A stretch of DNA of 35,682 nucleotides from an uncultured virus (IMG/VR IMGVR_UViG_3300027687_000005) (IMGVR_UViG_3300027687_000005); one strand, 5' to 3'; shown: positions 11,721-35,682, counted from the first letter of the stretch. Program-made: numbers and translations. Notes: generated by a model not told the origin, from the letters alone.

Positions 11721-11812
11721 CGGGTATGCAAACTTAGATGAGGTAAACTAGTACGTTATAGATATAACTATGTGTGAGTCTAACAAAGACATAACACACA
11801 TGGAGATCCACA

Positions 11813-14545: not shown

Positions 14546-14547
14546 CT

Positions 14548-16423: not shown

Positions 16424-16435
16424 GGAAGAAAGAAC

Positions 16436-18568: not shown

Positions 18569-18746
18569 GAAGCTAGTAAACGATAAAGAACTATGGGATG
18601 CATTTACTCAAGAGTTAGATGAGTGCATCTCACAGCAACACAAGAGTATTGAGAACATATCTGATCCTGTAGAAGTGTATCGCGCTCAAGGTAAGATCTC
18701 AGCATACCGTAACTTGAAGTACTTGAGGGACAAAGTGAATGGCTGA
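18552..18746 (+). CDS. Small conserved post-portal protein (start probably 18558)
   Basis: VYRAQGKI..L..L motif. Confidence 0.75.
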   Translation: MVMSLKKLVNDKELWDAFTQELDECISQQHKSIENISDPVEVYRAQGKISAYRNLKYLRDKVNG

Positions 18747-21135: not shown

Positions 21136-21223
21136 TAAGAGGGTCTACAAGTAACACTACAAGACTACCCATATAACTATAAGGCTACCCAGCTACGGCT
21201 GGCCCCAACATAAGGAGAAAAAC

Positions 21224-22162
21224 ATGTCGGAAGCCCAACTGCAGACTGATTCTGCGTCACACCAACGAAATACAAACCGTGTTATGCGGGATGAAGAGGA
21301 ACTAAAAGCCCTACTCAAAGAAGCGGGGGTAGTTACAGAGGCAGCAGATGAAGAAGCTGAAGAAACCACCCAAGAGGAACCCGATAGCACGGAGCCTGTC
21401 GAACCCAGTGTTCAGGCAGAGAGTAGTTCCGAACAAGAAGAAGAACCAAAAGCCGAAGCACAAGATGAAGATCTAAGTGCAGAGGAAAAGAACTTCAAGA
21501 AGCGTTATGGTGATCTACGGCGGCACACTCAAGAGAAAGAGAAAGAGTTCCAAGCACAGCTGGATAAACTCACATCTCAACTTGATGCAGCATCAAAGAA
21601 TGAGCTTGTACTACCTAAGTCAGAAGATGAAGTAGAAGCTTGGGCTAAGAAGTACCCAGATGTTGCTGGTATGGTAGAAGCTATTGCTGATAAAAAAGCT
21701 AATGAACGCTCCTCTGAGCTAGATAGTCGCCTTAAAGAGATTGAGAAGTTACGCACACAGGCTCGTAGAGAGAAGTCCGAAGCAGAGCTTATGTCTATGC
21801 ACCCCGACTTTGCACAGATACGCTCTGATGACGCCTTCCACAAGTGGGCAGAGACACAGCCTAAAGTGGTACAGGATGCACTATATGAGAATGTAGATGA
21901 TGTTAAGTCTATTGCACGTGTACTAGATCTGTATAAGTCAGATAACGGCATCAAGACAAAGAAAGTTACCTCTACTGCTGATAAGGATGCAGCTACCTCA
22001 GTTAAAGGTAAACGCACCGTAGTAGATGCAAATGACTCTTCAACCTACCTCAGAGAATCACAGGTAGCGAAGATGTCTATTAAAGAATACGAGAAGCGTC
22101 AAGACGAGATTATAGACGCTCAACGTAAAGGCAAGTTTATTTACGATATGTCAAAGAAATAG
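21224..22162 (+). CDS. Capsid scaffolding protein
   Basis: Acidic N-terminus, FKKRYGDLR coiled coil, HPDF; directly upstream of the capsid gene. Confidence 0.85.
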   Translation: MSEAQLQTDSASHQRNTNRVMRDEEELKALLKEAGVVTEAADEEAEETTQEEPDSTEPVEPSVQAESSSEQEEEPKAEAQDEDLSAEEKNFKKRYGDLRRHTQEKEKEFQAQLDKLTSQLDAASKNELVLPKSEDEVEAWAKKYPDVAGMVEAIADKKANERSSELDSRLKEIEKLRTQARREKSEAELMSMHPDFAQIRSDDAFHKWAETQPKVVQDALYENVDDVKSIARVLDLYKSDNGIKTKKVTSTADKDAATSVKGKRTVVDANDSSTYLRESQVAKMSIKEYEKRQDEIIDAQRKGKFIYDMSKK

Positions 22163-22163
22163 T

Positions 22164-22192
22164 TTGACATTCCTTGATTAGTAGATAAAACT
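22164..22192 (+). promoter_or_regulatory. Capsid gene promoter
   Basis: TTGACA-16-TAAAACT. Confidence 0.6.
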
Positions 22193-22400
22193 ATAGGCAT
22201 GTACATTGTTAGGTGATAACCCTTTGTACATGCTTTTAACTAAGCACTCCCACATAAAAGAACTACCTCCAATTATAGGCCCAGCGCTCCAAGGGTGGCA
22301 ATCCTAAGAGCAACGCTGACTACCCTAATAAGAAGAGCCTCTTTTCAGTGAATATGTAGTGTCTATCCCCTAAGCCACATATCTTTGAAAGGATTTTCTC

Positions 22401-23468
22401 ATGGCTATTACTTCCGCATCAGGCGGCTTTAACGGTAGCTGGTCCCCAGTTATTTATTCCAAGCAGGCACAGATTGCTCTACGCAAATCTGCCATCACTA
22501 ACGCAATCACAAACAACTCTTACTTTGGTGAGATTGCTAACCAAGGCGACACAGTTCGCATCCAGAAAGAGCCAGACGTAACTGTTAACGCTCTGCAACG
22601 TCACACAGGTATCTCAGTAGAGAAACTTGACGACACTGACTTCTCTTTGACCATCGACAAAGCCAACTACTTTGCTTTCAAAATGGATGACATTGAAGAT
22701 CAATTCGCAAACGTAGACTTCTCATCTTTGGCAGCAAATCGTGCAGCCTATAAGATGGCTGACGCAATGGACCAAGACTGCTTGTCTTACCTGTCAGGTC
22801 ACACTACTGCAGGCGCTTTCATCACTTCCACTTCTGGTGATGCACAGCACGCAACAGCTGGTTCTTTAACTGGTGAATTGTTTACTGCAAACCACTTGGA
22901 CGCAACTGACTTCGGTTCGTTGGGTACAGCTGACTCCGCTTCAACAGCTTATGCTAATGGCGATTCCATTCCTCTTGCTCCACGTCTTCCAGGCGCAACA
23001 GCGTTGTCTACAGCGACTGTTTCTCCTTTGACTGTTCTTGCACGTATGGCACGTCAGATGGACACAGCTAATGTGGACTCTCGTGGGCGTTATGTCGTTC
23101 TTGACCCGGTGTTTATTGAGATGCTCAAAGACGAGGATTCTCGCGTAATGAATGCCGACTTCGGTGGTACAGGCCTTATGAACGGCTTGGTATTGAACAA
23201 CCTGCACGGCTTCCGTGTTTATGTGTCCAATAATCTTCCTAAGAAGGGCTCAGGCGCCGGAACTTCTGGGGCTTTGGCACAGGACGTAAACTTTGGCGTG
23301 ATTGTTGCTGGTCAAGACGAAGCTTGCGCTTCTGCTGAGCAGATCAACAAAGTAGAGAACTACCGTGACCCAGACAGCTTTGCTGACATTGTTCGTGGTA
23401 TGCATCTATATGGTCGCAAGATTCTTCGTCCAGAAGCTCTTGTAACAGCACACTATAACGCTGCTTAA
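22401..23468 (+). CDS. Major capsid protein
   Basis: PVIYSK, GEIANQGDTVRI, FAFKMDDIE, FADIVRGMHLYGRKILRPE; strong codon bias. Confidence 0.92.
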   Translation: MAITSASGGFNGSWSPVIYSKQAQIALRKSAITNAITNNSYFGEIANQGDTVRIQKEPDVTVNALQRHTGISVEKLDDTDFSLTIDKANYFAFKMDDIEDQFANVDFSSLAANRAAYKMADAMDQDCLSYLSGHTTAGAFITSTSGDAQHATAGSLTGELFTANHLDATDFGSLGTADSASTAYANGDSIPLAPRLPGATALSTATVSPLTVLARMARQMDTANVDSRGRYVVLDPVFIEMLKDEDSRVMNADFGGTGLMNGLVLNNLHGFRVYVSNNLPKKGSGAGTSGALAQDVNFGVIVAGQDEACASAEQINKVENYRDPDSFADIVRGMHLYGRKILRPEALVTAHYNAA

Positions 23469-23481
23469 TCTAACTAAAGTC

Positions 23482-23512
23482 GGGGCTGGCCTAGTGCTGG
23501 CCCCTTCCCTCT
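23482..23512 (+). terminator. Possible terminator hairpin after the capsid gene
   Basis: GGGGCTGGC-CTAGT-GCTGGCCCC with G-U pairs, then a pyrimidine tract (weak U tail). Confidence 0.5.
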
Positions 23513-23531
23513 TACCTTAAGGCATACAACA

Positions 23532-24248
23532 ATGGCTACTTATATTACATTAGTAAATGATTTGCTTCGTAGGCTTAACGAGGTTAGTATTAACACTACC
23601 GACTTTGATACAGTAAGAAACATCCAAGCCATAGCTAAGGATGCTATAAACTCATCAGTACGTGAGATACTGCAAGAGGCCCAAGAGTGGCCCTTCACGA
23701 TAGTTACATATACACAAGCATTAACAGTAGGCACAGGAACTTATGACTTCCCTGCAGACTTCTCTAAGGTAGATTGGGAAACCTTTTACCTCAAGTCTCT
23801 GGATGGATCAACCCCTTCGCCGCTACCCGTACTAACATATGAAATGTATCTTCAATCTTACCGTGCTAGTGATGATAGCAGCGGTGAAGCAGGATACAAT
23901 CTTCCTACATGCGTCTATAAAACACAGGAAGATAAGTTTGGTATTACACCCCTTCCTGACAAAACATATAGCATTGAGTATCGTTACTGGAAATACCCAG
24001 AAGACTTATCACTTGCTGATGACGTGTGTGTTATACCTTCTAGGTTTAAGCATATCCTTATTGATGGTGCTATGATGTACATGATGCGTTTCCGCTCTAA
24101 CGAACAGTCTGCTAACATCCATCAAGATAAGTTTACAAAAGGCATTAAGTCCATGCGTAGGTTAATTGTTGATAGTCCTACCCAACTATACTCCACTGTA
24201 ACTGGTGGCTTTCAGAGTTCTACCGCACCTAAGAAAAGCTTCTTCTAA
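23532..24248 (+). CDS. Head-tail adaptor (tail tubular protein A-like)
   Basis: TYITLVNDLLRRLNE, WPF, P.PDKTY; position after capsid. Confidence 0.75.
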   Translation: MATYITLVNDLLRRLNEVSINTTDFDTVRNIQAIAKDAINSSVREILQEAQEWPFTIVTYTQALTVGTGTYDFPADFSKVDWETFYLKSLDGSTPSPLPVLTYEMYLQSYRASDDSSGEAGYNLPTCVYKTQEDKFGITPLPDKTYSIEYRYWKYPEDLSLADDVCVIPSRFKHILIDGAMMYMMRFRSNEQSANIHQDKFTKGIKSMRRLIVDSPTQLYSTVTGGFQSSTAPKKSFF

Positions 24249-25787
24249 ATGGATAACCTAAAAACTCACCTTACAGTTTGTGCAGGTGGTCTTGTAACTA
24301 ACGTAGACCCTCTCACGCAGGCATCTGCTATGAGTGGCAGCGCTATACGTATGATTAACTACGAGCCATCTCTTTCTGGTGGCTATCGGCGCATTAGTGG
24401 ATACCTTAATGACTATGGTACTGTCGCAGGTACAGGCTCTATTCTTGGTGTTAATGTAAATGCTAATATAAATGATGGTATTTTTGCTTGCAGGAAACCT
24501 TCTTCTGGGTATAACTATCTACACAAGTGGAATAACAGTACGACTAGCTGGGATGCAGTGACATCCGCTGGTACACCTAACATGACAAACGTTTCTCGTG
24601 TACGGTTTATTAATTATAACTGGTCATCGGAGAGTATGCTTCTAACTGATGGTGTTAATCCTGCAGCTGTTTATGATGGCACTACTTATACCGCTCTTAC
24701 TCATGCAAATGCTCCTACTAACCCAAAGTATTCAGAAGAGTTTGCTTCTCATGTATTTCTAGCAGGAGACTCTGCAGATACACAGATACTTCACTTCAGC
24801 GCCCCTTTAAATGCTGTAGACTTTAGCCCAGCCAATGGTTCAGGTGTTATCAACGTAGGCTACAAGATAACAGCCATCAAAAGGTTTCGTAATGAGTTAT
24901 ACATCTTTGGTGCGAACAGTATTAAGAAGCTTGTAGGCAATAGCATAGCTGATTTTCAGTTACAGAGTGTAACATCTAACCTTGGTTGTGTTGCCCCTGA
25001 CTCCGTAGTAGAGTTTGGTGGTGATCTACTCTTCTTGGGGCCAGACGGTATTCGTCCTATTTCTGGCACTGACCGCATTGGTGACGTTGAACTTGCCCCC
25101 GTATCTAAAGAGATTCAAGACATTTTTGACAGGTACTACTTGTCTGAGGAAGTCTCAGATGTTAGTATTGCAGTAATACAAAAAAAGTCTCAGTTCCGGT
25201 TCTTCTTTAAGAATGATTCATCTCTCTCCCTTATTGGTGCTATTCGTAAGAGCCAAGGTAAGCAGAGTATTTTTGAGTACAGCCAGCTTATTGGCATAGA
25301 AGCTAACTGTGTAGCTAGTGGTTACATTGGGCAGTTTGAACATGTGATACATGGGGATACCGCAGGTAAAGTTCATAGGCAGGAACGTGGTGTTTCTTTT
25401 GCAGGAGGGGATATATTTAGCCTATATCAAACACCCTACTACTACATGGAAGACCCTGAGGTACGTAAAAACATCTACGACATTAACACATACATGAAGT
25501 CAGAAGGTACTACAGAAGTATTTGTAGGTGTCTCATATGACTATGATGACATTAATACTAACAACCCTACAACCTATGACTTTTCTACACAAGGTGCAGC
25601 TGCACTATACGGCACAGCTATCTACGGTTCTGGTGACATCTATGATGGTAATCCGTCCCCTAAGAAGCAAACAAGCATATCAGGCTCTGGTAAATCGGTT
25701 TCTATCAGTTATGTTACTAACAATCAAAGTGCAAGCCATACTATTCAAGCCATTACGCTTACTTATGGCATAGCAGACAGGAGATAA
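24249..25787 (+). CDS. Tail nozzle/stabilisation protein
   Basis: Beta-propeller-like; GGL, GYRRI.G, LGCVAPDSV..GGDLLFL..DGIR. Confidence 0.75.
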   Translation: MDNLKTHLTVCAGGLVTNVDPLTQASAMSGSAIRMINYEPSLSGGYRRISGYLNDYGTVAGTGSILGVNVNANINDGIFACRKPSSGYNYLHKWNNSTTSWDAVTSAGTPNMTNVSRVRFINYNWSSESMLLTDGVNPAAVYDGTTYTALTHANAPTNPKYSEEFASHVFLAGDSADTQILHFSAPLNAVDFSPANGSGVINVGYKITAIKRFRNELYIFGANSIKKLVGNSIADFQLQSVTSNLGCVAPDSVVEFGGDLLFLGPDGIRPISGTDRIGDVELAPVSKEIQDIFDRYYLSEEVSDVSIAVIQKKSQFRFFFKNDSSLSLIGAIRKSQGKQSIFEYSQLIGIEANCVASGYIGQFEHVIHGDTAGKVHRQERGVSFAGGDIFSLYQTPYYYMEDPEVRKNIYDINTYMKSEGTTEVFVGVSYDYDDINTNNPTTYDFSTQGAAALYGTAIYGSGDIYDGNPSPKKQTSISGSGKSVSISYVTNNQSASHTIQAITLTYGIADRR

Positions 25788-25790
25788 ACC

Positions 25791-28700
25791 GTGGCAGGTT
25801 ATACAAGACAATCTACAGCAGACATCATCCCCACCGCAACGCTACGGGCTGCTCCAATCAACGCTGAGTATAATGCTCTACGTGATGCATTCGCTGCATC
25901 TGGTGGTCACAAGCATGATGCCAGTACAGGTGAAGGTGGCTACGTTCCTCTTATCGCAGACGTAGATGCTAATAACAAAGTACAGGTTAATACAGGCTCC
26001 AATACAGTAGACTTCTACGTTGAAGTATCTGGTGTACCTGTTCAGCAAATCAGTGTTCGAGATGGTGTATTACGCCCTATTACAGATAATGACATTGACC
26101 TTGGGGCGTCTGGTGCAGAGTTTAAAGACCTGTACATTGACGGTATTGGCTACATTGACACACTGGCTGTTCACGAGAATGCTACAATAGCTGGTACACT
26201 TAACGTAACTGGGGTTATCACTGCTCCAGCTGGTGTCGTAGCTAATATCACAGGCAACCTCACTGGTAACGTAACAGGTAATGTTACAGGTAATCTAACT
26301 GGTAATGTAACGTCCTCTGGTACATCTACCTTTGCTGACCTTGATGCAGTTGACCTATCTGCTACAGGTACAACAGTTATTACATCTGGTGACATTAACT
26401 CAGGTACTATTGATAACTCAGTAATTGGTAACGCTACTCCTGCTGCTGGTACATTTACTACCCTTACAGCCAACACAAGCCTTACAGCTGCTACTGCCGA
26501 TATTAATGGCGGTACTGTAGATGGCGCTACTATTGGTGCTAATAGCGCATCTACTGGTGCCTTCACTGCACTATCAGCCACAGGTACATCTACTCTTTCT
26601 ACTGTAGATATTAATGCTGGTGCCATAGACGGAACTACTATTGGTGCTTCTACACCCGCAGCTGGTAGCTTTACCACTGTGTCTACAACAGGGCAAGCTA
26701 CACTAGCTTCTGTTGATATTAATGGTGGAGCTATTGATGGGGCTACTGTCGGGGCAACAACTGCTTCTTCCGGTGCATTCACCACTGTAACGGCTTCTGG
26801 TGGCGTCACAGGCGCTCTTACAGGCAACGTAACTGGTAATGTAACTGGTAACGTAACTGGTGCGATAACGGGCAATGTAACTGGTGATCTGACAGGTAAC
26901 GTAACTTCAGCTGGTACATCTACATTCAATAACGTGACCATCGACGGTACGTTAAATATGAATGCTGGTACTACAGCCACGATCACTAACCTTACTGATC
27001 CCACTAATGCACAGGATGCAGCCACTAAAGCCTATGTAGACACAGGTATCTCTAACCTTGTAGCTTCTGCCCCCGGTACGCTTGATACATTAAACGAACT
27101 GGCTGCAGCCCTTGGCGATGACGCAGCCTTCAGCACCACAGTAACTAACAGCATTGCTACTAAGCTTCCACTAGCTGGTGGTACAATGTCTGGTGCCATT
27201 GCTATGGGTGCCAATAAAGTAACTGGTGTTACTGATCCTACAGCGGCACAGGATGCTTCCACTAAAGCCTACACAGACGCACAACGTGATACCCGTGTAG
27301 CTAAATCAGGCGATACGATGTCTGGCAACCTAGCAATGGGTTCCAATAAAGTTACTGGCCTTGCTGCTCCTGTGGACGCAAACGATGCAACTTCTAAGAC
27401 ATATGTAGATGGCATCTTAGGTTCGGCTACTGTCGCCGCAACATCTGCAACAAACGCTGCTACCTCAGAAACCAATGCTGCAACAAGTGCAACTAACGCA
27501 TCTAACTCAGCAAGCGCAGCAGCTACCAGTGAGACTAACGCCGCTGCCTCATTTGATGCATTTGATGATAGATACCTTGGCGCTAAGTCTTCTGCACCTA
27601 CAGTAGACAATGACGGTGATGCTTTGGTTATTGGGGCGCTCTATTTCAACAGTACAACGGCAATCATGTACGTTTATGGTTCAGGTGGCTGGCAAGCTGC
27701 TGGCTCATCTGTGAATGGTACATCAGATCGTCAGACATATACTGCTACAGCAGGTCAGACTGTCTTTGCTGCAACATATGATACTGGTTATGTAGATGCG
27801 TACCTTAACGGTGTAAAGCTTATTGCTGGTACTGACTTCACTGCTACTTCTGGTACAAATATTACACTTTCTACAGGTGCAGCAGTTAATGATACAGTAG
27901 ACATTGTAGCTTACGGTACATTCGTACTAGCAGATCACTATACTAGCACACAGTCTGATGCACGTTACCTTCAAATATCTGGCGATGGTAGTACTGGCAA
28001 TCTGTCAGTTACAGGTAATATCTCTATCACTGGCACTGTAGATGGACGTGATGTCGCTACAGACGGTACTAAGCTAGATGGTATTGAGGCATCTGCCGAC
28101 GTTACTGACGCAACTAACGTAACCGCTGCTGGCGCACTGATGGACAGTGAGGTCACTAACTTAGCTCAGGTCAAGGCATTTAGCTCCTCTGACTATGCCA
28201 CAGCCGCCCAAGGCACTACTGCTGACGCTGCCCTGCCTAAAGCTGGCGGGACTATGACGGGCGCTTTGGATGTCCAAGGCACAGTGACGGCTGATGGGCT
28301 GACTGTGGATGGTAGTGCTGTAATAAACAACGCAGCTAGTATAGGTTATGGTGGTGATTTAGTTCTTACTTTGAACGATACCGCAAATGATTATCCAATG
28401 CTTCGTTTTACAGGAACATCAGGTGGTTTGTTTGCAGTGCGTTCTGAGGGAAACAAGAGTTTAAAGTTCTATGAGGACACAGGATCATCTTTAAAATCCA
28501 GAATGTATATTGCTGAAGGCGGCGACATCAGCTTCTACGAGGACACAGGCACGACGCCAAAATTCTTCTGGGACGCTAGTGCTGAATCGTTGGGCATTGG
28601 GACGAGTTCGCCTAGTTCATTTAACGGCGGTGCAAACAACCTTGTAGTTGGCTCTGGCTCTGGCTCTGAAGGCATGACTATTTATGCCGACAGTTCATCT

Positions 28701-29492
28701 AATAGTGCAGTATTCTTTGCGGATGGAACTTCTGGTGCCGCTACATACACGGGTCAGTTAAACTACCAACACGCATCTAATGCTATGACGTTCCACACAA
28801 ATGGCGGCTCAGAAGCCGCTAGGCTGGACAGCAGCGGTAACTTGCTTGTGGGTAAGACGAGTGCTGCTTACAATACGGCTGGTTTTCAAATTCAGTCTAA
28901 TGGTATTGCTGGAGCAACTACTTCCGTTGGTAGGCCTTTCTATGTAAACAGAAAAAGCACTGATGGTGCACTTTTTGACCTATATAAAGACGGCACATCT
29001 GTGGGCAGCTGGATGTCACGGGCTGGTGTTGTTTCGACAATAATACTTGACCCTCGTTCTGGTGGTGGCGGTCTCTCTGGTGGCGGTGCAGCATTGTACC
29101 CAACCAATAATGTGGGCGCACTTTCTAACGGAGCTTTAACACTTGGTGATGCGTCATATAAGTTCAATGACGGCCACTTCTCAGGAACAGTCAACGCAGC
29201 CAACTTCAACACCACCTCAGACGCTACACTCAAGACCAACGTAGAGACCCTCACAGGCTCTCTGGATGCCGTTAAGTCCCTGCGTGGTGTATCATTCGAT
29301 TGGCTAGAGAATGGCAACTCAGAGGTCGGCGTAATCGCTCAAGAGGTGGAAGCAGTTCTACCTGATTTAGTCAGCACTAACGGCGAAGGCATTAAGTCAG
29401 TCAAGTACGGTAACATGGTTGCGGTGCTGATTGAGGCAATCAAAGAGCAGCAGCTTCGCATTGAAGCCCTCGAACTTAAACTAGGAGAATAA
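25791..29492 (+). CDS. Tail fibre with C-terminal peptidase S74 intramolecular chaperone
   Basis: GNVT repeats, DPT.AQDA.TKAY.D repeats, APGTLDTLNELAAAL; S74 motif SDATLKTNV...GVIAQEVE..LP.LV. Confidence 0.92.
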   Translation: MAGYTRQSTADIIPTATLRAAPINAEYNALRDAFAASGGHKHDASTGEGGYVPLIADVDANNKVQVNTGSNTVDFYVEVSGVPVQQISVRDGVLRPITDNDIDLGASGAEFKDLYIDGIGYIDTLAVHENATIAGTLNVTGVITAPAGVVANITGNLTGNVTGNVTGNLTGNVTSSGTSTFADLDAVDLSATGTTVITSGDINSGTIDNSVIGNATPAAGTFTTLTANTSLTAATADINGGTVDGATIGANSASTGAFTALSATGTSTLSTVDINAGAIDGTTIGASTPAAGSFTTVSTTGQATLASVDINGGAIDGATVGATTASSGAFTTVTASGGVTGALTGNVTGNVTGNVTGAITGNVTGDLTGNVTSAGTSTFNNVTIDGTLNMNAGTTATITNLTDPTNAQDAATKAYVDTGISNLVASAPGTLDTLNELAAALGDDAAFSTTVTNSIATKLPLAGGTMSGAIAMGANKVTGVTDPTAAQDASTKAYTDAQRDTRVAKSGDTMSGNLAMGSNKVTGLAAPVDANDATSKTYVDGILGSATVAATSATNAATSETNAATSATNASNSASAAATSETNAAASFDAFDDRYLGAKSSAPTVDNDGDALVIGALYFNSTTAIMYVYGSGGWQAAGSSVNGTSDRQTYTATAGQTVFAATYDTGYVDAYLNGVKLIAGTDFTATSGTNITLSTGAAVNDTVDIVAYGTFVLADHYTSTQSDARYLQISGDGSTGNLSVTGNISITGTVDGRDVATDGTKLDGIEASADVTDATNVTAAGALMDSEVTNLAQVKAFSSSDYATAAQGTTADAALPKAGGTMTGALDVQGTVTADGLTVDGSAVINNAASIGYGGDLVLTLNDTANDYPMLRFTGTSGGLFAVRSEGNKSLKFYEDTGSSLKSRMYIAEGGDISFYEDTGTTPKFFWDASAESLGIGTSSPSSFNGGANNLVVGSGSGSEGMTIYADSSSNSAVFFADGTSGAATYTGQLNYQHASNAMTFHTNGGSEAARLDSSGNLLVGKTSAAYNTAGFQIQSNGIAGATTSVGRPFYVNRKSTDGALFDLYKDGTSVGSWMSRAGVVSTIILDPRSGGGGLSGGGAALYPTNNVGALSNGALTLGDASYKFNDGHFSGTVNAANFNTTSDATLKTNVETLTGSLDAVKSLRGVSFDWLENGNSEVGVIAQEVEAVLPDLVSTNGEGIKSVKYGNMVAVLIEAIKEQQLRIEALELKLGE

Positions 29493-29494
29493 TT

Positions 29495-29797
29495 ATGGCT
29501 GTAACATTTACATGGTCTGTAGCAAACCTTGAGCGCACAACAGCAGACGGCGGTGTGACAGTAGTCCACTGGCGCTGCGATGGCGTGGATGGGGAGGCTT
29601 CGGTTGGTCAGTATGGCACAACCTCATGCACACCTGACGCATCTGCATCTGACTTCATTGCATTCGACAGCTTAACTCAAGACACAGTGCTTGCTTGGGT
29701 CTGGGATACAGTCGTCCGTGCTGACGTTGAAGCAAGCATTACGGATCAGATCAAAGCTGAGTTGAACCCAACGACTACCGCTGGGCTTCCTTGGTAA
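29495..29797 (+). CDS. Tail-fibre-associated protein
   Basis: TWSVANLER..DGGV..VHW...GLPW; GGAG RBS. Confidence 0.7.
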   Translation: MAVTFTWSVANLERTTADGGVTVVHWRCDGVDGEASVGQYGTTSCTPDASASDFIAFDSLTQDTVLAWVWDTVVRADVEASITDQIKAELNPTTTAGLPW

Positions 29798-29827
29798 TCT
29801 CTACGCTAATAGTGAAGGAACACGAAG

Positions 29828-30136
29828 ATGGCGATTAAAGTAAACGGTACTACGGTTATTGATGATAGTAGGAACCTTGTAAATATTGTAAGTGGGGCTG
29901 GTAGTAGTACAGACCTTGGTGCTGTTGGGAGTTATGTATTTGCTCAGTACAGAGGAAGCCCCGCATTTACCCAAGGCCAAGTGATTGCTGCTGGTACATA
30001 CGCACTAAGACCAACCAACGCCTTTGGCAACACGGGCGGGACAAACATATCATCAGGGTCTTGGCGCTGTATGGGAATTAAGGCAGACAGTTTTACAAAT
30101 GAAGAAGCCTCTACACTTTTTGTAAGGATTTCATAA
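29828..30136 (+). CDS. Short tail fibre-like protein
   Basis: MAIKVNGTTVIDDSRNL, GAVGSY, GSWRCMG, LFVRIS. Confidence 0.7.
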   Translation: MAIKVNGTTVIDDSRNLVNIVSGAGSSTDLGAVGSYVFAQYRGSPAFTQGQVIAAGTYALRPTNAFGNTGGTNISSGSWRCMGIKADSFTNEEASTLFVRIS

Positions 30137-30552
30137 TGACTATAACAATCACACAAGTTCGCAATGCGGCGTCCCTTCAAGCGGATAACCTTCGCATGAA
30201 CGTAGAGATTAACCATCCACAGCACGGCTGGATACCTTACACTCTTAACCCTGCCGATACAGACACCACGATTGACAATGATGCAGTCATGGCTCTGATC
30301 GGCACAGGCTTCGCAGCATATGTTCCGCCTACACAGGCAGAGCTAGATGCAGCCGCTGCCGCACAGGTTCGTGCAGATCGTGACAATCGTTTGACCACAG
30401 AGGTTGACCCACTGGTGTCTAACCCACTTCGCTGGGCTGACCTTACGTCTGACAAACAGGCTGAGTGGTCACAGTACAGGACTGACCTACTGGGTGTACC
30501 ACAGCAGGCGGGTTTCCCAGCAGACATTACTTGGCCCACTAAGCCTGAGTAA
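30136..30552 (+). CDS. Tail fibre assembly chaperone (XkdW-like)
   Basis: HPQHGWIPY, VRADRD..L, W..YR..L..VPQQAGFP..ITWPTKP. Confidence 0.8.
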   Translation: MTITITQVRNAASLQADNLRMNVEINHPQHGWIPYTLNPADTDTTIDNDAVMALIGTGFAAYVPPTQAELDAAAAAQVRADRDNRLTTEVDPLVSNPLRWADLTSDKQAEWSQYRTDLLGVPQQAGFPADITWPTKPE

Positions 30553-30818
30553 TGAAAGACCAAGACGGTTGGCACATATCCCGAAGTGTCCCCGCAACTC
30601 TCTTGCTCGGCCTTATGACACAAGCTGCTGCAATCGTATGGACAGTGTCCATGATGATGGCGGATATCCAGCAGAACAACGAGAAGCTAATGAACTTCTC
30701 TGAGCGAGTGTCGAAGGTCGAGACAATGGTACAAAGCCAAGCAGTAAGCATGGCTCGTATTGACGAAAACATTCAACACATTCGAGGCGCTGTCGAGAAG
30801 ATGGCCCAAAAACCCTAG
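30552..30818 (+). CDS. Membrane-anchored coiled-coil protein
   Basis: TM segment followed by ARIDENI coiled coil. Confidence 0.7.
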   Translation: MKDQDGWHISRSVPATLLLGLMTQAAAIVWTVSMMMADIQQNNEKLMNFSERVSKVETMVQSQAVSMARIDENIQHIRGAVEKMAQKP

Positions 30819-30992
30819 GTGCTCTGCACTCTGGTGTTCGTTGGGTACGCCCATATGTTCATCAACGGTCAAGGAAGTTGGTTTCACAAGAGGTGCTATT
30901 ACTTTTGTGGAACCAACTCCCATTGGTACGACAGGGTGTTCAGGGTGTCCCCAAATTTCAATTGTCAGGGGAGGATAAAACTCAATGATTGA
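30819..30992 (+). CDS. Small Cys-rich protein (57 aa, GTG start, not in ORF track)
   Basis: VLCTLVFVGYA...KRCYYFC...NCQGRIKLND; fills the gap exactly. Confidence 0.55.
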   Translation: MLCTLVFVGYAHMFINGQGSWFHKRCYYFCGTNSHWYDRVFRVSPNFNCQGRIKLND

Positions 30993-31452
30993 AGTATTAG
31001 CACTCGCCTCGGCGGTAAGCACTATAGCAGGCAGTATAAGCAGCGCAGTCCAAGCTGGTAGAGATGTTAGTGCTGTTCTCCCTGCATTCGGTAAACTTGC
31101 AAAACTAGAGGCAGATATTAGCCTTGCTGAAAGTGGTCGCCACAAAGGACCACTGCGTAGGCTCTCTTCTACAGAAGAAGAAGGCTTCGCAATCAGTATG
31201 GCTAAAATGAGGCATAAAGAGGCAATGGACGAATTAAGGTCTATCTGCCAGCTATATGGTCCACCGAATATGTGGGCCACCGTGGTGCGAGAACAAGCCG
31301 CAGCTAGGAAAAGACGGGCTGACTTACTAAATGCCCAAGCCAAGCAGCGAGACAAGATATTCTACTCCATAACTATATCACTTTCCATATTGGTATTTTG
31401 TGGAGGAGCCGCAGGCCTCTTCTGGTTTGCCACCCTACTAGCTGAAAATTAA
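30985..31452 (+). CDS. Membrane protein (C-terminal TM)
   Basis: MIEVLALA N-terminus, coiled coil, hydrophobic C-terminus; GGAGG RBS. Confidence 0.75.
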   Translation: MIEVLALASAVSTIAGSISSAVQAGRDVSAVLPAFGKLAKLEADISLAESGRHKGPLRRLSSTEEEGFAISMAKMRHKEAMDELRSICQLYGPPNMWATVVREQAAARKRRADLLNAQAKQRDKIFYSITISLSILVFCGGAAGLFWFATLLAEN

Positions 31453-31466
31453 TCTAAGGAAATAAC

Positions 31467-31859
31467 ATGAACCTCAATCCTCTCGGCGGTATCGTCGATG
31501 GGCTTGCGAAAGGTTTAGATGACCTCTTCACATCTGATGAAGAGCGGGAAGCTGCAAAGCTAAAACTAGCTACACTAATGCAGCAACCTCATATGCTCCA
31601 AGCAGTGGCGAATATCGAAGGTGCTAAGCATCGCTCAATATTCGTTGCTGGCTGGCGTCCAGCTATTGGCTGGGTCGCTGCCCTAGGCTTGGGCTATGAG
31701 TTCCTAGTCAAACCATTTGCAGGCCTGATTAACGCATACCTAACGCTCCCCGCAGAACTCCCAAGTTTAGCAGGGGACCAACTCATGACCCTCGTACTTT
31801 CCCTCTTAGGCCTCGGTGGTCTTAGGACATTCGAGAAAGTCAAAGGAACATCAAAATGA
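31467..31859 (+). CDS. Holin, GTA-type 3TM family
   Basis: FTSDEE, FVAGWRPAIGWV, LLGLGGLRTFEK. Confidence 0.85.
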   Translation: MNLNPLGGIVDGLAKGLDDLFTSDEEREAAKLKLATLMQQPHMLQAVANIEGAKHRSIFVAGWRPAIGWVAALGLGYEFLVKPFAGLINAYLTLPAELPSLAGDQLMTLVLSLLGLGGLRTFEKVKGTSK

Positions 31860-32086
31860 CACAACAAGAAATGATGGAGCTTCTGCATAAGACCCTTGCA
31901 GAAAACCTACTGCTTCGCATTCAGGACCCTGAAGCTAAGTCTTCGGACCTGAACGTAGCCCGACAGTTCCTCAAGGATAATAACATCGATGCTATCCCTA
32001 CAAACGATAGCCCCCTCGGTGACCTTGTAGCTAACCTTCCGAACTTCAACGATGAAGATGCGGATACATCAGAAATGCGCCATTAA
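31856..32086 (+). CDS. terS: Terminase small subunit, T7 gp18-like
   Basis: LH..LA..LL..I......SDLNVARQFLKDNNI. Confidence 0.85.
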   Translation: MTQQEMMELLHKTLAENLLLRIQDPEAKSSDLNVARQFLKDNNIDAIPTNDSPLGDLVANLPNFNDEDADTSEMRH

Positions 32087-32091
32087 ATCAT

Positions 32092-33816
32092 ATGTTTCCA
32101 GATAGAACCTCATTAGGTGTGCCACGGACGCAGGACCCTCTAAGCGACTTCCGCAAATTCCTGTTCGTCTGTTGGCAACACCTCAACCTGCCAGTCCCTA
32201 CGCCAGTCCAATACGACATCGCAAAGCACATACAAGACGGTGAGAAACGTATCATCGTTCAGGCTTTCCGAGGCGTAGGGAAATCTTGGATTACATCAGC
32301 ATATGCAGTGTGGCTCCTCTATATGAACCCACAGCTAAACATCTTGGTAGTATCCGCTTCCAAGTCACGAGCTGATGACTTCACAACCTTCACCCTTAGA
32401 CTGATTAACGAGATGCCTATACTTCAGCACCTCATCCCTCGATCAGATCAGAGACAATCAAAGATTAGCTTCGACGTAGCACCCGCTAACGCCTCACATG
32501 CCCCCTCAGTAAAGAGTGTGGGTATCTCAGGGCAACTTGCAGGGTCCCGAGCTGACGTATTGATTGCAGATGACATAGAAGTACCCAATAACTCCATGAC
32601 ACAGGGGATGAGAGATAAACTCTCAGAGGCTGTTAAAGAATTTGATGCTATCCTAAAGCCTGATGGTCGTATTATCTACCTCGGCACCCCACAGAACCAA
32701 GAGAGCCTATACAATAAGCTCCCAGATCGTGGGTATAAGGTACGCATCTGGCCTGCTAGGTATCCTAATGAAGACCAATTGGTTTCTCTAGGGGATAAAT
32801 TGGCGCCTAGAGTGGCTAAATCACTGAAGAATGCCCCAGAGTTACTAGGGAAATCTACAGACCCTGACCGCTTTGATGACTTCGACCTAGCAGAACGTGA
32901 AGCATCCTACGGTAGGTCAGGTTTCGCCCTACAGTTCATGCTCGATACAAGGCTCTCTGATGCCGAAAGATACCCTCTGAAGGTGTCTGACCTAGTAGTG
33001 ATGGACATACCCACTGAGGAGGCTCCTGAGAAGGTCGTGTGGGCTTCTGGTGACCAGTATGTCGTGCAGGAACTTCCGAATGTAGCCTTCAACGGAGACT
33101 ACTACCACAAGCCTATGTATATCTCAGATCAATTCGTAGAATACAGCGGCTCAGTGATGTCCATAGACCCCTCAGGACGCGGTAAGGATGAAACGGGGTA
33201 TGCAGTCGTAAAGATGCTTAATGGCTTCCTATATGTCCGTAGGTGCGGCGGGGTAACTGGTGGGTACTCTGAGGAAGCCCTCAAGAAACTTGCTATGATT
33301 GCTAAGGAAGAGAAGGTTAACGAGATTATCGTCGAGAGTAACTTTGGTGATGGTATGTTCAACCAACTCATGATGCCTATCCTAGCAAAGATACACCCAG
33401 TCACTATGGGTGAGGTACGTCACAATACACAAAAAGAGAAGCGCATCATCGATGTACTAGAACCTGTGATGAACCAACATAAGCTGGTGATGGATAAGAA
33501 GCTCATTAAGAGAGACTACGAAAGCACACAACACCTCCCACCTGAACAAGCCCTAAGATACCAACTCATGTATCAGCTAACCCGTATCACTGCAGAGAGA
33601 GGGGCATTGTCTAACGATGACCGCTTAGACTCCCTAGCTATGGCAGTTCAATACTGGGTAGATGCAATGTCTCAGGATGCTGAAGTTCGTATAGGTGCTC
33701 GTAGGGAAGAGATGCTCATGGCAGAGGTAGATAAGGTAAGACAATCAGCCTCTATGGGCCTAGCAGTCATTACAGGACACCTAGCAGATGGGTTCCAAAA
33801 GGGGATGAAGTGGTAA
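32092..33816 (+). CDS. terL: Terminase large subunit 2, T7 gp19-like
   Basis: QAFRGVGKSWITSAY, GSRADVLIADDIEVP, LGTPQ, SIDPSGRGKDET, DDRLDSLA. Confidence 0.96.
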   Translation: MFPDRTSLGVPRTQDPLSDFRKFLFVCWQHLNLPVPTPVQYDIAKHIQDGEKRIIVQAFRGVGKSWITSAYAVWLLYMNPQLNILVVSASKSRADDFTTFTLRLINEMPILQHLIPRSDQRQSKISFDVAPANASHAPSVKSVGISGQLAGSRADVLIADDIEVPNNSMTQGMRDKLSEAVKEFDAILKPDGRIIYLGTPQNQESLYNKLPDRGYKVRIWPARYPNEDQLVSLGDKLAPRVAKSLKNAPELLGKSTDPDRFDDFDLAEREASYGRSGFALQFMLDTRLSDAERYPLKVSDLVVMDIPTEEAPEKVVWASGDQYVVQELPNVAFNGDYYHKPMYISDQFVEYSGSVMSIDPSGRGKDETGYAVVKMLNGFLYVRRCGGVTGGYSEEALKKLAMIAKEEKVNEIIVESNFGDGMFNQLMMPILAKIHPVTMGEVRHNTQKEKRIIDVLEPVMNQHKLVMDKKLIKRDYESTQHLPPEQALRYQLMYQLTRITAERGALSNDDRLDSLAMAVQYWVDAMSQDAEVRIGARREEMLMAEVDKVRQSASMGLAVITGHLADGFQKGMKW

Positions 33817-33823
33817 CACCTTT

Positions 33824-33847
33824 TAATTAGGTTGCACCATAGAGGAA
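33824..33847 (+). promoter_or_regulatory. T7-class phage RNAP promoter (phiOR-like)
   Basis: TAATTAGGTTGCACCATAGAGGAA resembles K11/SP6-type AATTAGG..CACTATAG promoters; directly after TerL. Confidence 0.65.
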
Positions 33848-33876
33848 GGGGAAGGAAACCCCCCCCCCTTTAACAC

Positions 33877-33982
33877 CCTATAGGTACTGTAGGTAGAGCT
33901 GTAGAGTTCTATAGGTACTATAGGTCTATAGTTCCTGTAGGACCTATAGCTCACAGCGAGATACAGGGACTATAGGTCCTAC
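33877..33982. repeat. Short CT(A/G)TAG repeat tract (T7 SRR-like)
   Basis: About nine CTATAG/CTGTAG units. Confidence 0.8.
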
Positions 33983-34045
33983 ATCATCCTGCAATGGTTG
34001 GGGATGGTATCCCCCTTTTAATACAGAGAAGAGTAGAACCTAGTA

Positions 34046-34303
34046 ATGAATACTAAGAACATAGCACAGCTGTGGAAAGACTACAGATACCACAGACTAG
34101 CTGATAAAGCAGAAGCACAGCTAAGGTTCCACTCCAATGCAGAGTTAAAAGACATAGGTATCACTAGGTCTGATATATCCCGCATGGCCCACAGTAAATG
34201 CGGTTGGTGTTCTAAGCCTGAGGTTATCCGCGAGATGACTGCAGGAGAGCGGCAGGCCAGTAGGGTCCGAGAGGTCCTGAATAATTCTGACGAAAAACTA
34301 TGA
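34046..34303 (+). CDS. DUF1127-like small protein with CxxC extension
   Basis: LRFHSNAELKDIGITRSDI followed by CGWC. Confidence 0.7.
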   Translation: MNTKNIAQLWKDYRYHRLADKAEAQLRFHSNAELKDIGITRSDISRMAHSKCGWCSKPEVIREMTAGERQASRVREVLNNSDEKL

Positions 34304-34575
34304 GGGGGTATACGTAATGGGCGTTAGCGAATTTCCCCCCTCATGCCCACCTTCCTTTTAAATTCCCACCAAAACAGGCCATTTGCACCAGCATTTGCAC
34401 CATGTCCGGCTAAGTGATTGAAAGGGTGGGGGTGGGTATCAGTTACCGCCGCTATTGCCGCCCTATTTATGGGCAGATGCAGGGGCCTTTTGGTTGCTGC
34501 AGGATTGGCGCCGATTGCCGCCGCTTGCTTCCCTCTTTTTTGTCTACCCTGCCGTTTTCGTTTTTCCTGCAGGAC

Positions 34576-34633
34576 CCAACAGGACCCACCTGGCAACCAA
34601 CAGGACCCACCTGGCAACCAATAGGCAACCAAC
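34576..34633. repeat. 21-bp tandem repeat plus degenerate copies
   Basis: CCAACAGGACCCACCTGGCAA at 34576-96 and 34597-34617. Confidence 0.85.
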
Positions 34634-34758
34634 AGAACAACAGCTTTCCCTGTTGTTTTCAAATTATTTTGCATCTGGTGCAAATTAACTGTTTACAATC
34701 CAGCCACTGGCGGTTACTTACTGGCAACAACTTCAATCAGCCTTGAAAGGGCCACATC

Positions 34759-34932
34759 ATGAATAACCAAGAATTCACCTTAGAAATATACGCCACTGCA
34801 GGGTGTCATGACTTACATCTTATGGTACGTCCAGATGATGACCTTGATGATAGATTTGATGCTATATGCCAAGATACTGGGGAAACCCTCTGGTTGAATG
34901 GTTGGAATTTCAGCATTGAGGTGGCGGAATGA
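34759..34932 (+). CDS. First early ORF of segment B (57 aa, acidic, not in ORF track)
   Basis: GAAAGG RBS; MNNQEFTLEIY...DDDLDDRFDAICQDTGE.LWLNGW. Confidence 0.65.
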   Translation: MNNQEFTLEIYATAGCHDLHLMVRPDDDLDDRFDAICQDTGETLWLNGWNFSIEVAE

Positions 34933-35015
34933 AAACCTTCACAACAATCCTCACCGCCACGGCAATGGTCTCAGCACTTGCAGTGCTAGCAGGTGCCCTA
35001 GCCGCTAATCTTTAA
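34929..35015 (+). CDS. 28-aa hydrophobic peptide
   Basis: MKTFTTILTATAMVSALAVLAGALAANL; ATGA coupling. Confidence 0.45.
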   Translation: MKTFTTILTATAMVSALAVLAGALAANL

Positions 35016-35063
35016 TCAAAATCTACCTACCATCAGTAAGAAACCAACAAGAGGAACTATACC

Positions 35064-35561
35064 ATGAAAATCTATGCAGCTTGCTTAGCATCATATAACA
35101 ACGGAACACTTTATGGAAAATGGATTGATGTTGTCGGGGAATGGTCCGACGAAATCAGCGATCAAATCCAGAACATGATTGACGCATCGCCGACACCCGG
35201 CGCGGAAGAATATGCAATCCACGATTATGATAATTTACCCGACTTTGGAGAGCATCCAGACTTGCAAGCTATTTCGGATTATTGCCGACTTGTTGAGGAA
35301 TATGATCATCTGGGTGAGGACGGTGTGCGCGCTATTGTCGACAACTGTAATGGCAATGTCGATCAAGCCTCCAAGGATTGCGAAAACGCCGTCTGTTATA
35401 GCAGCTTTCAAGATTATGCAGACGAATTGGCCGACGAAATGTTGCACGGCGTAGGCCAGAATATTGCATCATATTTCGATTACGAAGCTCACGCCAGAGA
35501 CCTCCGCCACGATTACATCGTGATTGAAATCGACGGGAGGCACACAATCATCACCCACTGA
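35064..35561 (+). CDS. ardA: Antirestriction protein ArdA
   Basis: IY.ACLASYNNG.L.G.WID, EEYAIHDYD, YFDYEA.ARDL; strongly acidic. Confidence 0.92.
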   Translation: MKIYAACLASYNNGTLYGKWIDVVGEWSDEISDQIQNMIDASPTPGAEEYAIHDYDNLPDFGEHPDLQAISDYCRLVEEYDHLGEDGVRAIVDNCNGNVDQASKDCENAVCYSSFQDYADELADEMLHGVGQNIASYFDYEAHARDLRHDYIVIEIDGRHTIITH

Positions 35562-35611
35562 GATTTGTATCGGTGACCCTGCCGTTTTCGGTAGGGCATC
35601 CCATGCAAATC
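35562..35611 (+). other. Long interrupted hairpin (RNase III site-like or terminator)
   Basis: GATTTGTAT..CCCTGCCG-TTTT-CGGTAGGG..ATGCAAATC. Confidence 0.6.
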
Positions 35612-35639
35612 CCTGCATGTTTTGAGAGGACTAATTAAG

Positions 35640-35682
35640 ATGACAATCGGCGGATATAAATTAAAAGATGAGGGCTTTGGCT
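35640..35682 (+). CDS. Start of next early gene (truncated)
   Basis: GAGG RBS then ATG, open to the window end. Confidence 0.5.
   Translation, partial: MTIGGYKLKDEGFG

Follow-up and report, generated by a model that had tools for sequence, protein, structure and literature searches.

A roseophage contig with two unrelated terminase systems is probably an assembly chimera joined at an identical tail-fibre stretch

The uncultured-virus sequence IMGVR_UViG_3300027687_000005 (IMG/VR), analysed over its full 35,682 nt and referred to here as the window, contains two intact, unrelated terminase systems. The first lies in an HMO-2011-type roseophage arm (1–28842, genes on both strands), assigned by 100% identity to contigs G001 and L089, family matches and megablast. 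The second lies in a T7-like (Autographiviridae-like) roseophage arm (29201–35682), assigned by identity to contigs G003, L004 and L003 and by a gene order like that of roseophage CRP-227; this arm runs from the late right end of the genome through the genome termini to the first early genes. BLASTP comparison of the two large terminase subunits, TerL-1 and TerL-2, gave no significant similarity (best E-value 1.4). GC content was 0.443 in the left arm versus 0.481 in the right, with a step at the junction.

Family profile matches placed ThyX, primase, integrase (1651–2562) and methyltransferase genes on the minus strand of the left arm, and a possible TerS, TerL, portal, capsid, adaptor and the N-terminal 1017 residues of a tail fibre on the plus strand. 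TerL-1 (14843–16423, plus strand; 526 aa) is of the HMO-2011 type (phrog_979, 4.1e-60; PF03237, 5.8e-08), carries the Walker A motif YGGSAGGGKS at residues 87–96 and shares 81% amino-acid identity with the TerL of CRP-207; by megablast, nucleotide identity of the window to the HMO-2011 TerL was 70.4%. The SU10-type portal cognate to TerL-1 (16436–18568, plus strand; PF23899, 8.3e-27; phrog_332, 7.1e-76) and the HMO-2011-type major capsid protein (22401–23468, plus strand; phrog_267, 3.9e-54; PF25209) are 84% and 81% identical in amino acids to the CRP-207 portal and coat protein, and a profile match identified an SU10 adaptor at 23532–24248 (plus strand), downstream in the same module. An initial reading of the window, made from the sequence alone (the sequence-only reading), had described an intact TerL at 14843 accompanied by portal and capsid, and the profile matches, the position of the motif and the homology to CRP-207 bear this out. 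The nearest relatives of the left arm by megablast were CRP-207 (76.7%), CRP-2, CRP-603 and HMO-2011. The region at 7.5–9.7 kb, which the sequence-only reading had proposed as a probable genome end, has a low GC content of 0.38 and contains endonuclease genes.

In the right arm, contig L004 matched window positions 29478–34245 at 99.96% identity and ended at 34245, and contig L003 matched 30503–35682 with 16 mismatches. Fifteen of these 16 differences fall inside 30603–30725, a locally variable patch identified by strain comparison within an 88-aa ORF (30552–30818, plus strand), and the same letters were present in the public run X5. A GTA-type holin with three transmembrane segments (31467–31859, plus strand; PF11351, 2.4e-11; phrog_3427, 1.2e-26) shares 92% amino-acid identity with CRP-227 gp45. 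It is followed by a 76-aa TerS of the T7 gp18 type (31856–32086, plus strand; phrog_891, 3.7e-14), in the position of CRP-227 gp46 ('DNA maturase A'), and by TerL-2, a 574-aa protein of the T7 gp19 type (32092–33816, plus strand; phrog_38, 5e-119) in which the PF22530 match (3.3e-40) corresponds to the T7 terminase RNaseH-like domain. TerL-2 is 90% identical in amino acids to CRP-227 gp47 and 100% identical to its counterparts in L003 and L004. The second intact gp18/gp19-type pair previously noted at 31856–33816 is thus corroborated by the matches to phrog_891, phrog_38 and PF22530, and it sits at the right genome end in the gene order of CRP-227. L003, which continues the window, encodes an 830-aa T7 RNA polymerase outside it (PF00940, 3e-98; PF14700, 1.2e-22).

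Just after TerL-2 lies a cluster of CTATAGG-type 17-nt repeats with a 14-nt inverted repeat (33878–33983; repeat families D1 and I2), and a repeat scan located a second short array at 34571–34638. In the region 34225–34509 the two deposited ends of CRP-227, right and left, align next to each other, window positions 34225–34300 corresponding to CRP-227 39295–39370 (of 39373) and 34382–34509 to CRP-227 77–203. Farther downstream is ArdA, an anti-restriction early gene of the T7-like phage (35064–35561, plus strand; PF07275, 1.3e-28; phrog_2059), which is 100% identical in L003. The mapped ends lend partial support to putative T7-like genome termini, or a concatemer junction, at about 34.30 kb. 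Of the genome-end region proposed after TerL-2, the short repeat arrays, the adjoining CRP-227 ends and the downstream ArdA gene were recovered, but the T7-class promoter was not: the CTATAGG motif is confined to the local cluster, being absent elsewhere in the scanned parts of the T7-like contigs L003, L251, L083 and L252. A sigma-70 scan found one site versus 2.5 expected.

Between the two terminase modules lies a tail-fibre ORF (25791–29492, plus strand; 1233 aa) that is open but composite in this contig, with a Peptidase_S74 domain at residues 1143–1194. Its N-terminal part shares 84–86% amino-acid identity with the HMO-like contigs L086 and L145, and from nucleotide 28843 onward no base of the ORF differs from the T7-like contig G003. 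The native 942-aa fibre of G003 has the Phage_T7_tail N-terminal domain (2.7e-25), by which such fibres dock on the T7-type tail, whereas profile search gave no match to this domain (PF03906) in the fibre of the window, as a chimeric join predicts. The join happens to fall in frame, and the composite fibre therefore resembles an intact gene.

The fibre tip is followed on the plus strand by a DUF7936 protein (29495–29797; PF25590, 1.5e-29; phrog_7802), a 102-aa ORF (29828–30136; phrog_2282, a tail-fibre C-end family, 3.1e-05) and the tail-fibre assembly chaperone Tfa (30136–30552; PF16778, 1.1e-12; phrog_4628, 3.9e-28). Homologues of the DUF7936 protein also follow the fibre in the T7-like CRP-227 (gp40, 79%), the HMO-like contig L159 (78%) and L084, a third podovirus type (95%). 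The 102-aa ORF varies between phages, its homologues sharing 45–68% identity, and Tfa shares 88% amino-acid identity with CRP-227 gp42, 76–77% with the HMO-like L159 and L145, and 79% with contig G005. The cassette of fibre tip, DUF7936, small ORF and Tfa is a real feature common to HMO-2011-type, T7-like and third-type podoviruses. The exchange of a fibre cassette between two podovirus lineages, as suggested from the sequence alone, is supported by its presence in both, and the cassette extends to the third type as well.

The depth of the two arms was compared in four public runs of four studies (X1, X2, X4 and X5), X1 being the probable source run of the window. Depths are those of Logan contigs, given as one value per contig with rare variants dropped, a resolution at which true hybrids present as a minority would go unseen. 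The left and right arms had depths of 31.7 and 155.2 in X1 (left/right ratio 0.20), 4.5–7.1 and 34.2 in X2 (0.13–0.21), 13 and 20.4–25.2 in X4 (0.52–0.64), and 8.95 and 126.5 in X5 (0.07). The coverage step that had been proposed as a check was therefore present in every run, always with the right arm deeper, and the ratio varied between runs from 0.07 to 0.64. Where contigs ran from the upstream part of the T7-type fibre into position 28839 and beyond, their depth was like that of the right arm (41.8 in X2, 141.2 in X5), and none of the Logan pieces listed for the four runs spanned both arms. Among 162 fetched related loci, none that had a T7-type TerL also had an HMO-type capsid, adaptor or 512-aa tail protein; independent genomes with both terminases, named beforehand as evidence against a chimera, did not appear in this set, from which records very near the window may be absent.

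The path from one arm to the other was followed through the contigs that end or diverge at the fibre. On the HMO-type side, two contigs match the window at 100% identity: G001 (33,690 nt) over 1–28265, ending at 28265, and L089 over 18266–28646, ending at 28646. G003, which is the 23,046-nt contig of L083, matched 28843–30826 with no mismatch; to the left of 28843 it has in common with the window only a 34-nt island (28277–28310, plus strand; 100% match to L083 10012–10045). This island recurs unchanged in the fibre gene of the T7-like phage itself and forms a graph branch point: Logan contigs end at 28306, and loose ends lie at 28277 and 28310. A Logan contig bridging 28578–28872 resembled the left arm in depth (25.5 in X1, 15.5 in X4), and the HMO-type path enters the sequence identical to G003 at 28843–28872. 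The HMO-type continuation, G005 (23,080 nt), starts at window-equivalent position 29199, first differs at 29201 and is 93.6% identical over 29199–29944. Comparison with G003 and G005 thus delimits a 358-nt stretch carried by both phages (28843–29200, plus strand; fibre residues 1018–1137), and Logan contigs break at 29193–29222 in X2 and X5. The switch from HMO-type to T7-like sequence must lie within this stretch, inside the fibre ORF. It had been placed between the C-terminal part of the fibre gene (about 28 kb) and the holin; the fibre end of that interval is retained, and the extension to the holin is not.

A chimera with its switch farther right, at about 30.4–30.55 kb, would call for an HMO-type phage in the window's own sample whose whole 1.7-kb cassette (28843 to about 30545) matched the T7-like one exactly, and we consider it unlikely. 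Logan contigs break at 30432–30529 in all four runs and leave loose ends at 30542 (X5) and 30552 (X1), the X1 contig 28843–29664 is unbroken across 29200, and the full cassette is present in the HMO-like relatives L159, L145 and G005. The breaks at 30.4–30.53 kb, however, also fit strain variants of the T7-like phage (contigs G002 and G003 differ by a SNP at 30528 and in the patch at 30603–30725), G005, the only HMO-type continuation found, differs from 29201 onward, and contigs of X2 and X5 already break at 29193–29222. The HMO-type exit from the shared path is not visible in X1; G005-type sequence, at 93.6%, falls below the 95% identity threshold used for matching Logan contigs.

Each parent genome could be closed, as judged from the assembled contigs, without any part of the other. 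G003 carries the T7-like structural module, with genes for an exonuclease, RNR, PhoH, portal (phrog_449), scaffold, capsid, tail tubes A and B and internal virion proteins. G002 (17,524 nt) encodes T7 RNA polymerase (PF00940, 3e-98), T7 SSB, primase/helicase and DNA polymerase. The two contigs overlap at 30503–30826, and their far ends divide a single thyX gene, residues 1–90 lying on one and residues 107–232 on the other, which gives a T7-like circle of about 40.3 kb (CheckV estimates 43% and 56%). Sixteen of the 324 overlapping bases differ, which indicates two strain variants. For the HMO-type phage, the last 1,353 nt of G005 dovetail with the left end of G001 at 99.85%, giving a circle of 33,690 + 933 + 23,080 − 1,353 = 56,350 nt (CheckV estimates 61% and 44%). 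The gene order of G005 is Tfa, a second fibre and an endolysin-domain protein, followed by PhoH, RNR, MazG and a Cas4-exonuclease; with the DNA polymerase and helicase in the left extension of G001, the RNR, PhoH and MazG genes of G005 complete the HMO-2011-type module. No T7 markers were found on G001 or G005. This circle combines data sets, G005 and G001 may come from different assemblies, and G001 may not be independent of the sample of the window.

Taken together, the unequal depth, the contigs that end or diverge at the fibre, the separate closure of the parents, the GC step, the CRP-227-like gene order of the right arm and the result for the 162 loci argue that the window is very probably an assembly chimera of two separate roseophages, joined at the identical fibre stretch; this was also the simpler explanation of the sequence-only reading, which had invoked a near-identical receptor-binding cassette. 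Positions 1 to about 28.84 kb would derive from an HMO-2011-type roseophage of about 56 kb, and about 29.2 kb to the end from a roughly 40-kb T7-like (Autographiviridae-like) roseophage. Both phages are present in the same waters, with fibre genes identical at 28843–29200 and a homologous cassette thereafter. We infer that the switch was made by the assembler, which would have entered the 358-nt stretch via the HMO-type fibre and left it via the more abundant T7-like path. The outcome would be a composite fibre ORF, open and in frame, on a contig bearing both terminase systems.

The true recombinant or co-integrate that had been put forward as the alternative would have arisen when the two co-infecting phages underwent homologous recombination in the fibre stretch they share, and would have been sequenced at low abundance. 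We regard such a natural hybrid as very improbable. Recombination could plausibly have used the identical 358-nt stretch, the composite fibre ORF keeps an open reading frame across the join, and free T7-like phage mixed with the hybrid would likewise leave the right arm deeper in all four runs. Against this, the join recurs in none of the 162 loci, both parents close without it, and the arm depth ratio differs between runs. Moreover, a path through the T7-like termini to the early genes needs much of both genomes (56 + 40 kb), and such a molecule seems too large for either capsid. It is likewise very improbable that the 358-nt patch is a live recombination site between the two phages in co-infected hosts, from which two-terminase hybrids arise in nature at low frequency. 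Two prophages lying side by side in a host chromosome can practically be dismissed: tyrosine integrases occur in both phages (window 1651–2562 and T7-like L003 7079–8143), but the junction falls within an open fibre ORF and not at an att site or tRNA, profile searches found no host gene in the whole window, the T7-like part runs through its own termini, and the arm depths are unequal.

With the window read as an assembly chimera, the two-terminase hybrid is not a real feature, but the shared fibre tip itself is. The contig should not serve as a phage genome, be counted as a case of two terminases, or be treated as a single unit for taxonomy or host prediction, and the database entry would be better split at 28.84–29.20 kb. 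Two abundant, unrelated marine phage lineages and a third podovirus type have the fibre-tip/DUF7936/Tfa cassette in common. That two of these lineages carry a stretch free of differences points to recent exchange of a host-recognition part among phages of the same Roseobacter hosts; the identical stretch would reflect recent natural recombination between both lineages. A very recent natural transfer of the receptor-binding tip between two phage families, with the cassette circulating in at least three podovirus backbones, is likely.

The right arm resembles the Autographiviridae roseophages CRP-227, CRP-114 and CRP-361 (Microb Genom 2024, PMC11092137), with 80–83% nucleotide identity over window positions 29163–33785 (83.3% for CRP-227). 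The resemblance to gp40–gp49 of CRP-227, a cultured phage, holds gene for gene (DUF7936, small ORF, Tfa, two small ORFs, holin, TerS and TerL), although the p155 ORF of the window shares only 25% identity with CRP-227 gp44. As in the T7-like CRP roseophages, the contigs that continue the window carry T7 RNA polymerase, an integrase and T7 SSB. Unlike the CRP-227 group, the window has an HMO-type genome in place of the T7-type fibre N-terminus and everything that precedes it.

The left arm belongs with the HMO-2011-type phages, namely Puniceispirillum phage HMO-2011 and roseophages CRP-207, CRP-2 and CRP-603 (ISME J 2022, PMC9038755). Term searches of PMC11092137 and PMC9038755 and a narrow library search gave no mention of cassette sharing in these lineages. 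The TerL, portal and capsid of the window share 80–84% amino-acid identity with those of CRP-207, with nucleotide matches over 14.3–23.5 kb, and the reconstructed 56.35-kb circle fits the 54–55-kb genomes of HMO-2011-type phages. CRP-207 has another order of structural genes downstream of the capsid, and at the DNA level it shares no fibre-tip cassette with the window or CRP-227 (best stretches 41–54 nt).

Inter-genome chimeric contigs are a known artefact of short-read metagenome assembly, and the window has the usual marks of one, with a shared identical repeat, contigs that end or branch at its edges, and a step in depth; nothing about it is unusual in this respect. Mosaic exchange of fibre tips and chaperones between unrelated phages of one host is likewise a known kind of event, and the S74 fibre C-terminus with downstream Tfa in three otherwise unrelated podovirus backbones conforms to it. 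What goes beyond general mosaic exchange is a stretch that is identical over at least 358 nt in two co-occurring marine phages, and it is this identity that would have misled the assembly.

ORF listing and family scans showed that the window holds two phage backbones. In the left arm, the HMO-2011-type roseophage part, ThyX (5–706), primase, tyrosine integrase (1651–2562) and methyltransferase genes were identified by family scan on the minus strand, and coding is on the plus strand from about 7.6 kb. A possible TerS (14174–14545, plus strand; phrog_2538 at 2.4e-05) and TerL-1 (14843–16423, plus strand; phrog_979 at 4.1e-60, YGGSAGGGKS at aa 87–96) are followed, in order, by a SU10-type portal, a capsid protein, a SU10-type adaptor, a 512-aa tail protein and a 1233-aa fibre (25791–29492, plus strand) whose C-terminal end is a Peptidase_S74 domain. 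Downstream of the fibre lie a DUF7936 protein, a 102-aa ORF, a Tfa-type chaperone, two small ORFs, a 3-TM holin, a second TerS (76 aa; phrog_891 at 3.7e-14) and the T7-type TerL-2 (32092–33816; phrog_38 at 5e-119, PF22530 at 3.3e-40), beyond which are short repeat arrays, a DUF1127-like small ORF and ArdA. TerL-1 and TerL-2 belong to different PHROG families and showed no relatedness by BLASTP (best E-value 1.4). Both systems are thus present, and the sequence-only reading was correct in seeing two unrelated terminase systems on one contig. The stretch at 7000–10000, where the HMO-type genome has its divergent junction and where the sequence-only reading saw a possible genome end, has a GC content of 0.38 compared with 0.44–0.50 elsewhere, and holds an endonuclease VII/HNH-like gene (8474–9211) and an HNH gene (9951–10238).

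Megablast searches of GenBank phages assigned the two arms to an HMO-2011-like and a T7-like lineage. Positions 1–25000 matched 12 records, the longest matches being to HMO-2011-type roseophages: CRP-207 (76.7% over 14297–23506), then CRP-2 and CRP-603, with the HMO-2011 TerL at 70.4%. Positions 25791–35682 matched seven records, every one a Roseobacter phage, and six of these match inside 29163–33784: CRP-227 (83.3%), CRP-114, CRP-361, CRP-171, CRP-113 and CRP-804 (a TerL match of about 190 nt). Of these, CRP-227 is placed in the Autographiviridae by the taxonomy line of its record. By annotation and tblastn, 29495–34300 is collinear gene for gene with CRP-227 gp40–gp49.

Independent contigs were found for each parent. 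The nearest virus record, the 33,690-nt HMO-type contig G001, is 100% identical to 1–28265, stops at 28265 and reaches 5,425 nt past the left end of the window; a second contig, L089, matches 18266–28646 at 100% identity and ends at 28646. On the T7-like side, a 4,767-nt contig (L004) covers 29478–34245 at 99.96%, and L003 (G002) runs from 30503 to the window end with 16 mismatches and then continues beyond. The T7-like contig G003 (L083) matches 28843–30826 with no mismatches; to the left of 28843 it has in common with the window only a 34-nt island at 28277–28310. Upstream of the shared part G003 has genes for tail tube B (T7-type), for internal virion proteins and for a 942-aa fibre. The N-terminal domain of this fibre is Phage_T7_tail (2.7e-25), a domain that the window fibre lacks.

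Twenty public sequencing runs contain part of 27600–29900. Depth across 25000–33000 was examined in four runs from four studies using Logan contigs, which give per-contig depth and not raw reads and from which rare variants are dropped; evidence was taken only from the parts of the window that these contigs cover. The right arm was deeper than the left in all four: 155.2 (3,574-nt contig) against 31.7 (4,249-nt contig) in X1, the possible source run of the window, 34.2 (one contig) against 4.5–7.1 (several) in X2, 20.4–25.2 (several) against 13 (one) in X4, and 126.5 against 8.95 (one contig each) in X5. None of the listed Logan contigs in the four runs spanned both arms. In X1, small contigs at 28281–28607 and 28578–28872 had left-arm-like depths of 18.8 and 25.5 (15.5 in X4) and led into a contig starting at 28843 with a depth of 162 (38.8 in X4). 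A second upstream path was also seen: X1 and X4 have loose ends ahead of 28839, and X2 and X5 have contigs joining different upstream sequence to 28839 onwards, at depths of 41.8 and 141.2. The joint from 28310 to 28839 is consistent with the fibre of G003 itself, which has both places in common with the window. Contigs broke at 29193–29222 in X2 and X5, coinciding with the start of G005, a further HMO-type contig. Within 28.84–30.53 kb the X1 depths were 162, 135, 111 and 111, a series confounded by strain variants.

Both parent genomes could be followed away from the join. G005 (23,080 nt) starts at the equivalent of 29199 and is 93.6% identical to the window over 29199–29944; the two first differ at 29201, and their Tfa proteins are 79% identical. 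Further along, G005 encodes a second fibre, an endolysin-domain protein and large virion proteins, with endonuclease VII, PhoH, RNR, MazG and a Cas4-type exonuclease on the opposite strand. The final 1,353 nt of G005 overlap the left end of G001 at 99.85%, giving an HMO-type circle of 33,690 + 933 + 23,080 − 1,353 = 56,350 nt (CheckV 61% + 44%). The HMO-type phage's own continuation past the cassette (fibre S74 tip, DUF7936, small ORF and Tfa) was thereby identified via G005, and no T7 markers were found on G005 or on the G001 extension. Other searches gave related sequences: a 33-mer of the last part of Tfa had exact matches in four viral contigs, none of them HMO-type; among the 80 kept of 403 relatives of the second-fibre protein of L145, an HMO-type contig, none was near-identical to the HMO-type phage of the window; and a 29-mer scan of the metagenome collection gave two matches, the contig of a third podovirus type described below and an HMO-like scaffold of 1,316 nt (80% identity) with Tfa, a second fibre and a second Tfa.

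For the T7-like phage, G002 (17,524 nt) encodes T7 RNAP (PF00940 at 3e-98), integrase, T7 SSB, primase/helicase and DNAP, and G003 (23,046 nt) encodes exonuclease, RNR, PhoH, portal, scaffold, capsid, tail tubes and fibre. The two overlap at 30503–30826. No nucleotide overlap was found between their far ends, which are placed next to each other because one thyX gene is split over them (aa 1–90 and aa 107–232). The resulting circle of about 40.3 kb (CheckV 43% + 56%) compares with 40,413 nt in CRP-114 and 39,373 nt in CRP-227. ThyX occurs in both phages (window 5–706; 4276–4524 and 10704–11039 of the T7-like contig parts L251 and L252), the proteins being 35–46% identical, as does a tyrosine integrase (window 1651–2562, minus strand; L003 7079–8143); either phage could be temperate.

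Since the HMO-type path was traced as far as 28872, identity to the T7-like contig holds from 28843 on, and no HMO-type continuation was found other than G005, which departs from the window at 29201 and beyond, the change of genome must lie inside 28843–29200, corresponding to fibre aa 1018–1137. The earlier placement between the C-terminal part of the fibre and the holin is narrowed by the G003 identity, the Logan contigs and G005. GC content changes from 0.443 to 0.481 across the switch. A switch further right, near 30.5 kb, is a less likely alternative, for which the HMO-type phage of the window's sample would have to carry the whole cassette unchanged. Contig breaks at 30.43–30.53 kb in four of four runs fit that alternative; they also fit strain variants of the T7-like phage, which show a SNP (30528) and a patch (30603–30725). 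In that patch, within the 88-aa ORF at 30552–30818, two otherwise identical T7-like contigs show 15 differences in 123 nt, 11 of them at 30707–30725, and run X5 has the same letters; the pattern suggests replacement of a short segment rather than scattered SNPs.

Among 162 loci, each covering at most ±10 kb, many on short contigs and drawn from collections that may exclude records very close to the window, none combined a T7-type TerL with any of three HMO-type proteins (capsid, adaptor and 512-aa tail protein). A loose rule flagged 21 loci. In flagged loci with a T7-type TerL the "HMO" matches were short fibre motifs only (29–157 aa); L104 and L143, with portal matches of 23–24%, and the HMO-like L127, with homologues of the 88-aa and 155-aa ORFs, had no T7-type TerL. 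The two-terminase contig is very probably an assembly chimera, formed through a fibre-tip stretch truly common to both phages. The same explanation had been preferred from the sequence alone and is upheld by the unequal arm depths, the separate closure of both parents and the lack of the join among the 162 loci. The contig should be split at 28.84–29.20 kb.

Phages of three kinds have the cassette: it lies 3' of fibres in T7-like phages (CRP-227, G003), HMO-type contigs (the 57-kb L159, L145, G005, and L086 without DUF7936) and a third podovirus type, the 35.6-kb contig L084 (cassette at 9410–12845). The L084 backbone (1–21746) has TerS phrog_1482, TerL phrog_2/5902 and virion proteins phrog_2941 and phrog_3287; this contig is 93% identical to 29163–29935 and has the exact 33-mer in Tfa in common with the window. 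L249, a short HMO-type contig, shows only Tfa copies flanking a second fibre. Cassette exchange of this sort is a known kind of event. Two unrelated phages that co-occur show no difference over at least 358 nt, from which we infer that the fibre-tip stretch was recently exchanged between them. Cultured CRP-207 (HMO-type) and CRP-227 (T7-like), grown on one host strain according to their records, have no shared cassette at the DNA level, so exchange is not shown among isolates. In L127, 9181–10019 holds homologues of the 88-aa (60%) and 155-aa (76%) ORFs directly 3' of DUF7936; on such sequence comparison, genes right of the cassette apparently also move between lineages. No description of fibre-cassette sharing between these lineages was found in the available part of PMC11288001 or in passages of PMC11092137, on Autographiviridae roseophages, and no mention of tail fibres, host recognition or exchange in the available text of PMC9038755, on HMO-2011-type phages.

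At the right end, 34225–34300 matches the final bases of CRP-227 (39295–39370 of 39373) and 34382–34509 matches its positions 77–203. As both CRP-227 ends match here, the window continues without a break across the T7-like termini, at about 34.30 kb, and on into early genes, ArdA among them; this partly supports the proposed second genome end and new early region after TerL-2. The contig L004 ends at 34245. Several repeats lie near these inferred termini. At 33861–33983 a run of ten C precedes four CTATAGG-type repeats of 17 nt and a perfect 14-nt inverted repeat, and a 21-nt tandem pair lies further on, at 34571–34638. The T7-class promoter suggested after TerL-2 did not hold up. CTATAGG was rejected as a phage promoter, the motif being limited to the repeat cluster 3' of TerL-2 (33878–33983) and absent elsewhere in the scanned parts of the T7-like contigs, and a sigma-70 scan gave one site against 2.5 expected. 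The ArdA-type anti-restriction gene (35064–35561) lies early in the T7-like genome, about 0.8 kb in from its left end; in T7, gp0.3 is an anti-restriction gene with a similarly early position.
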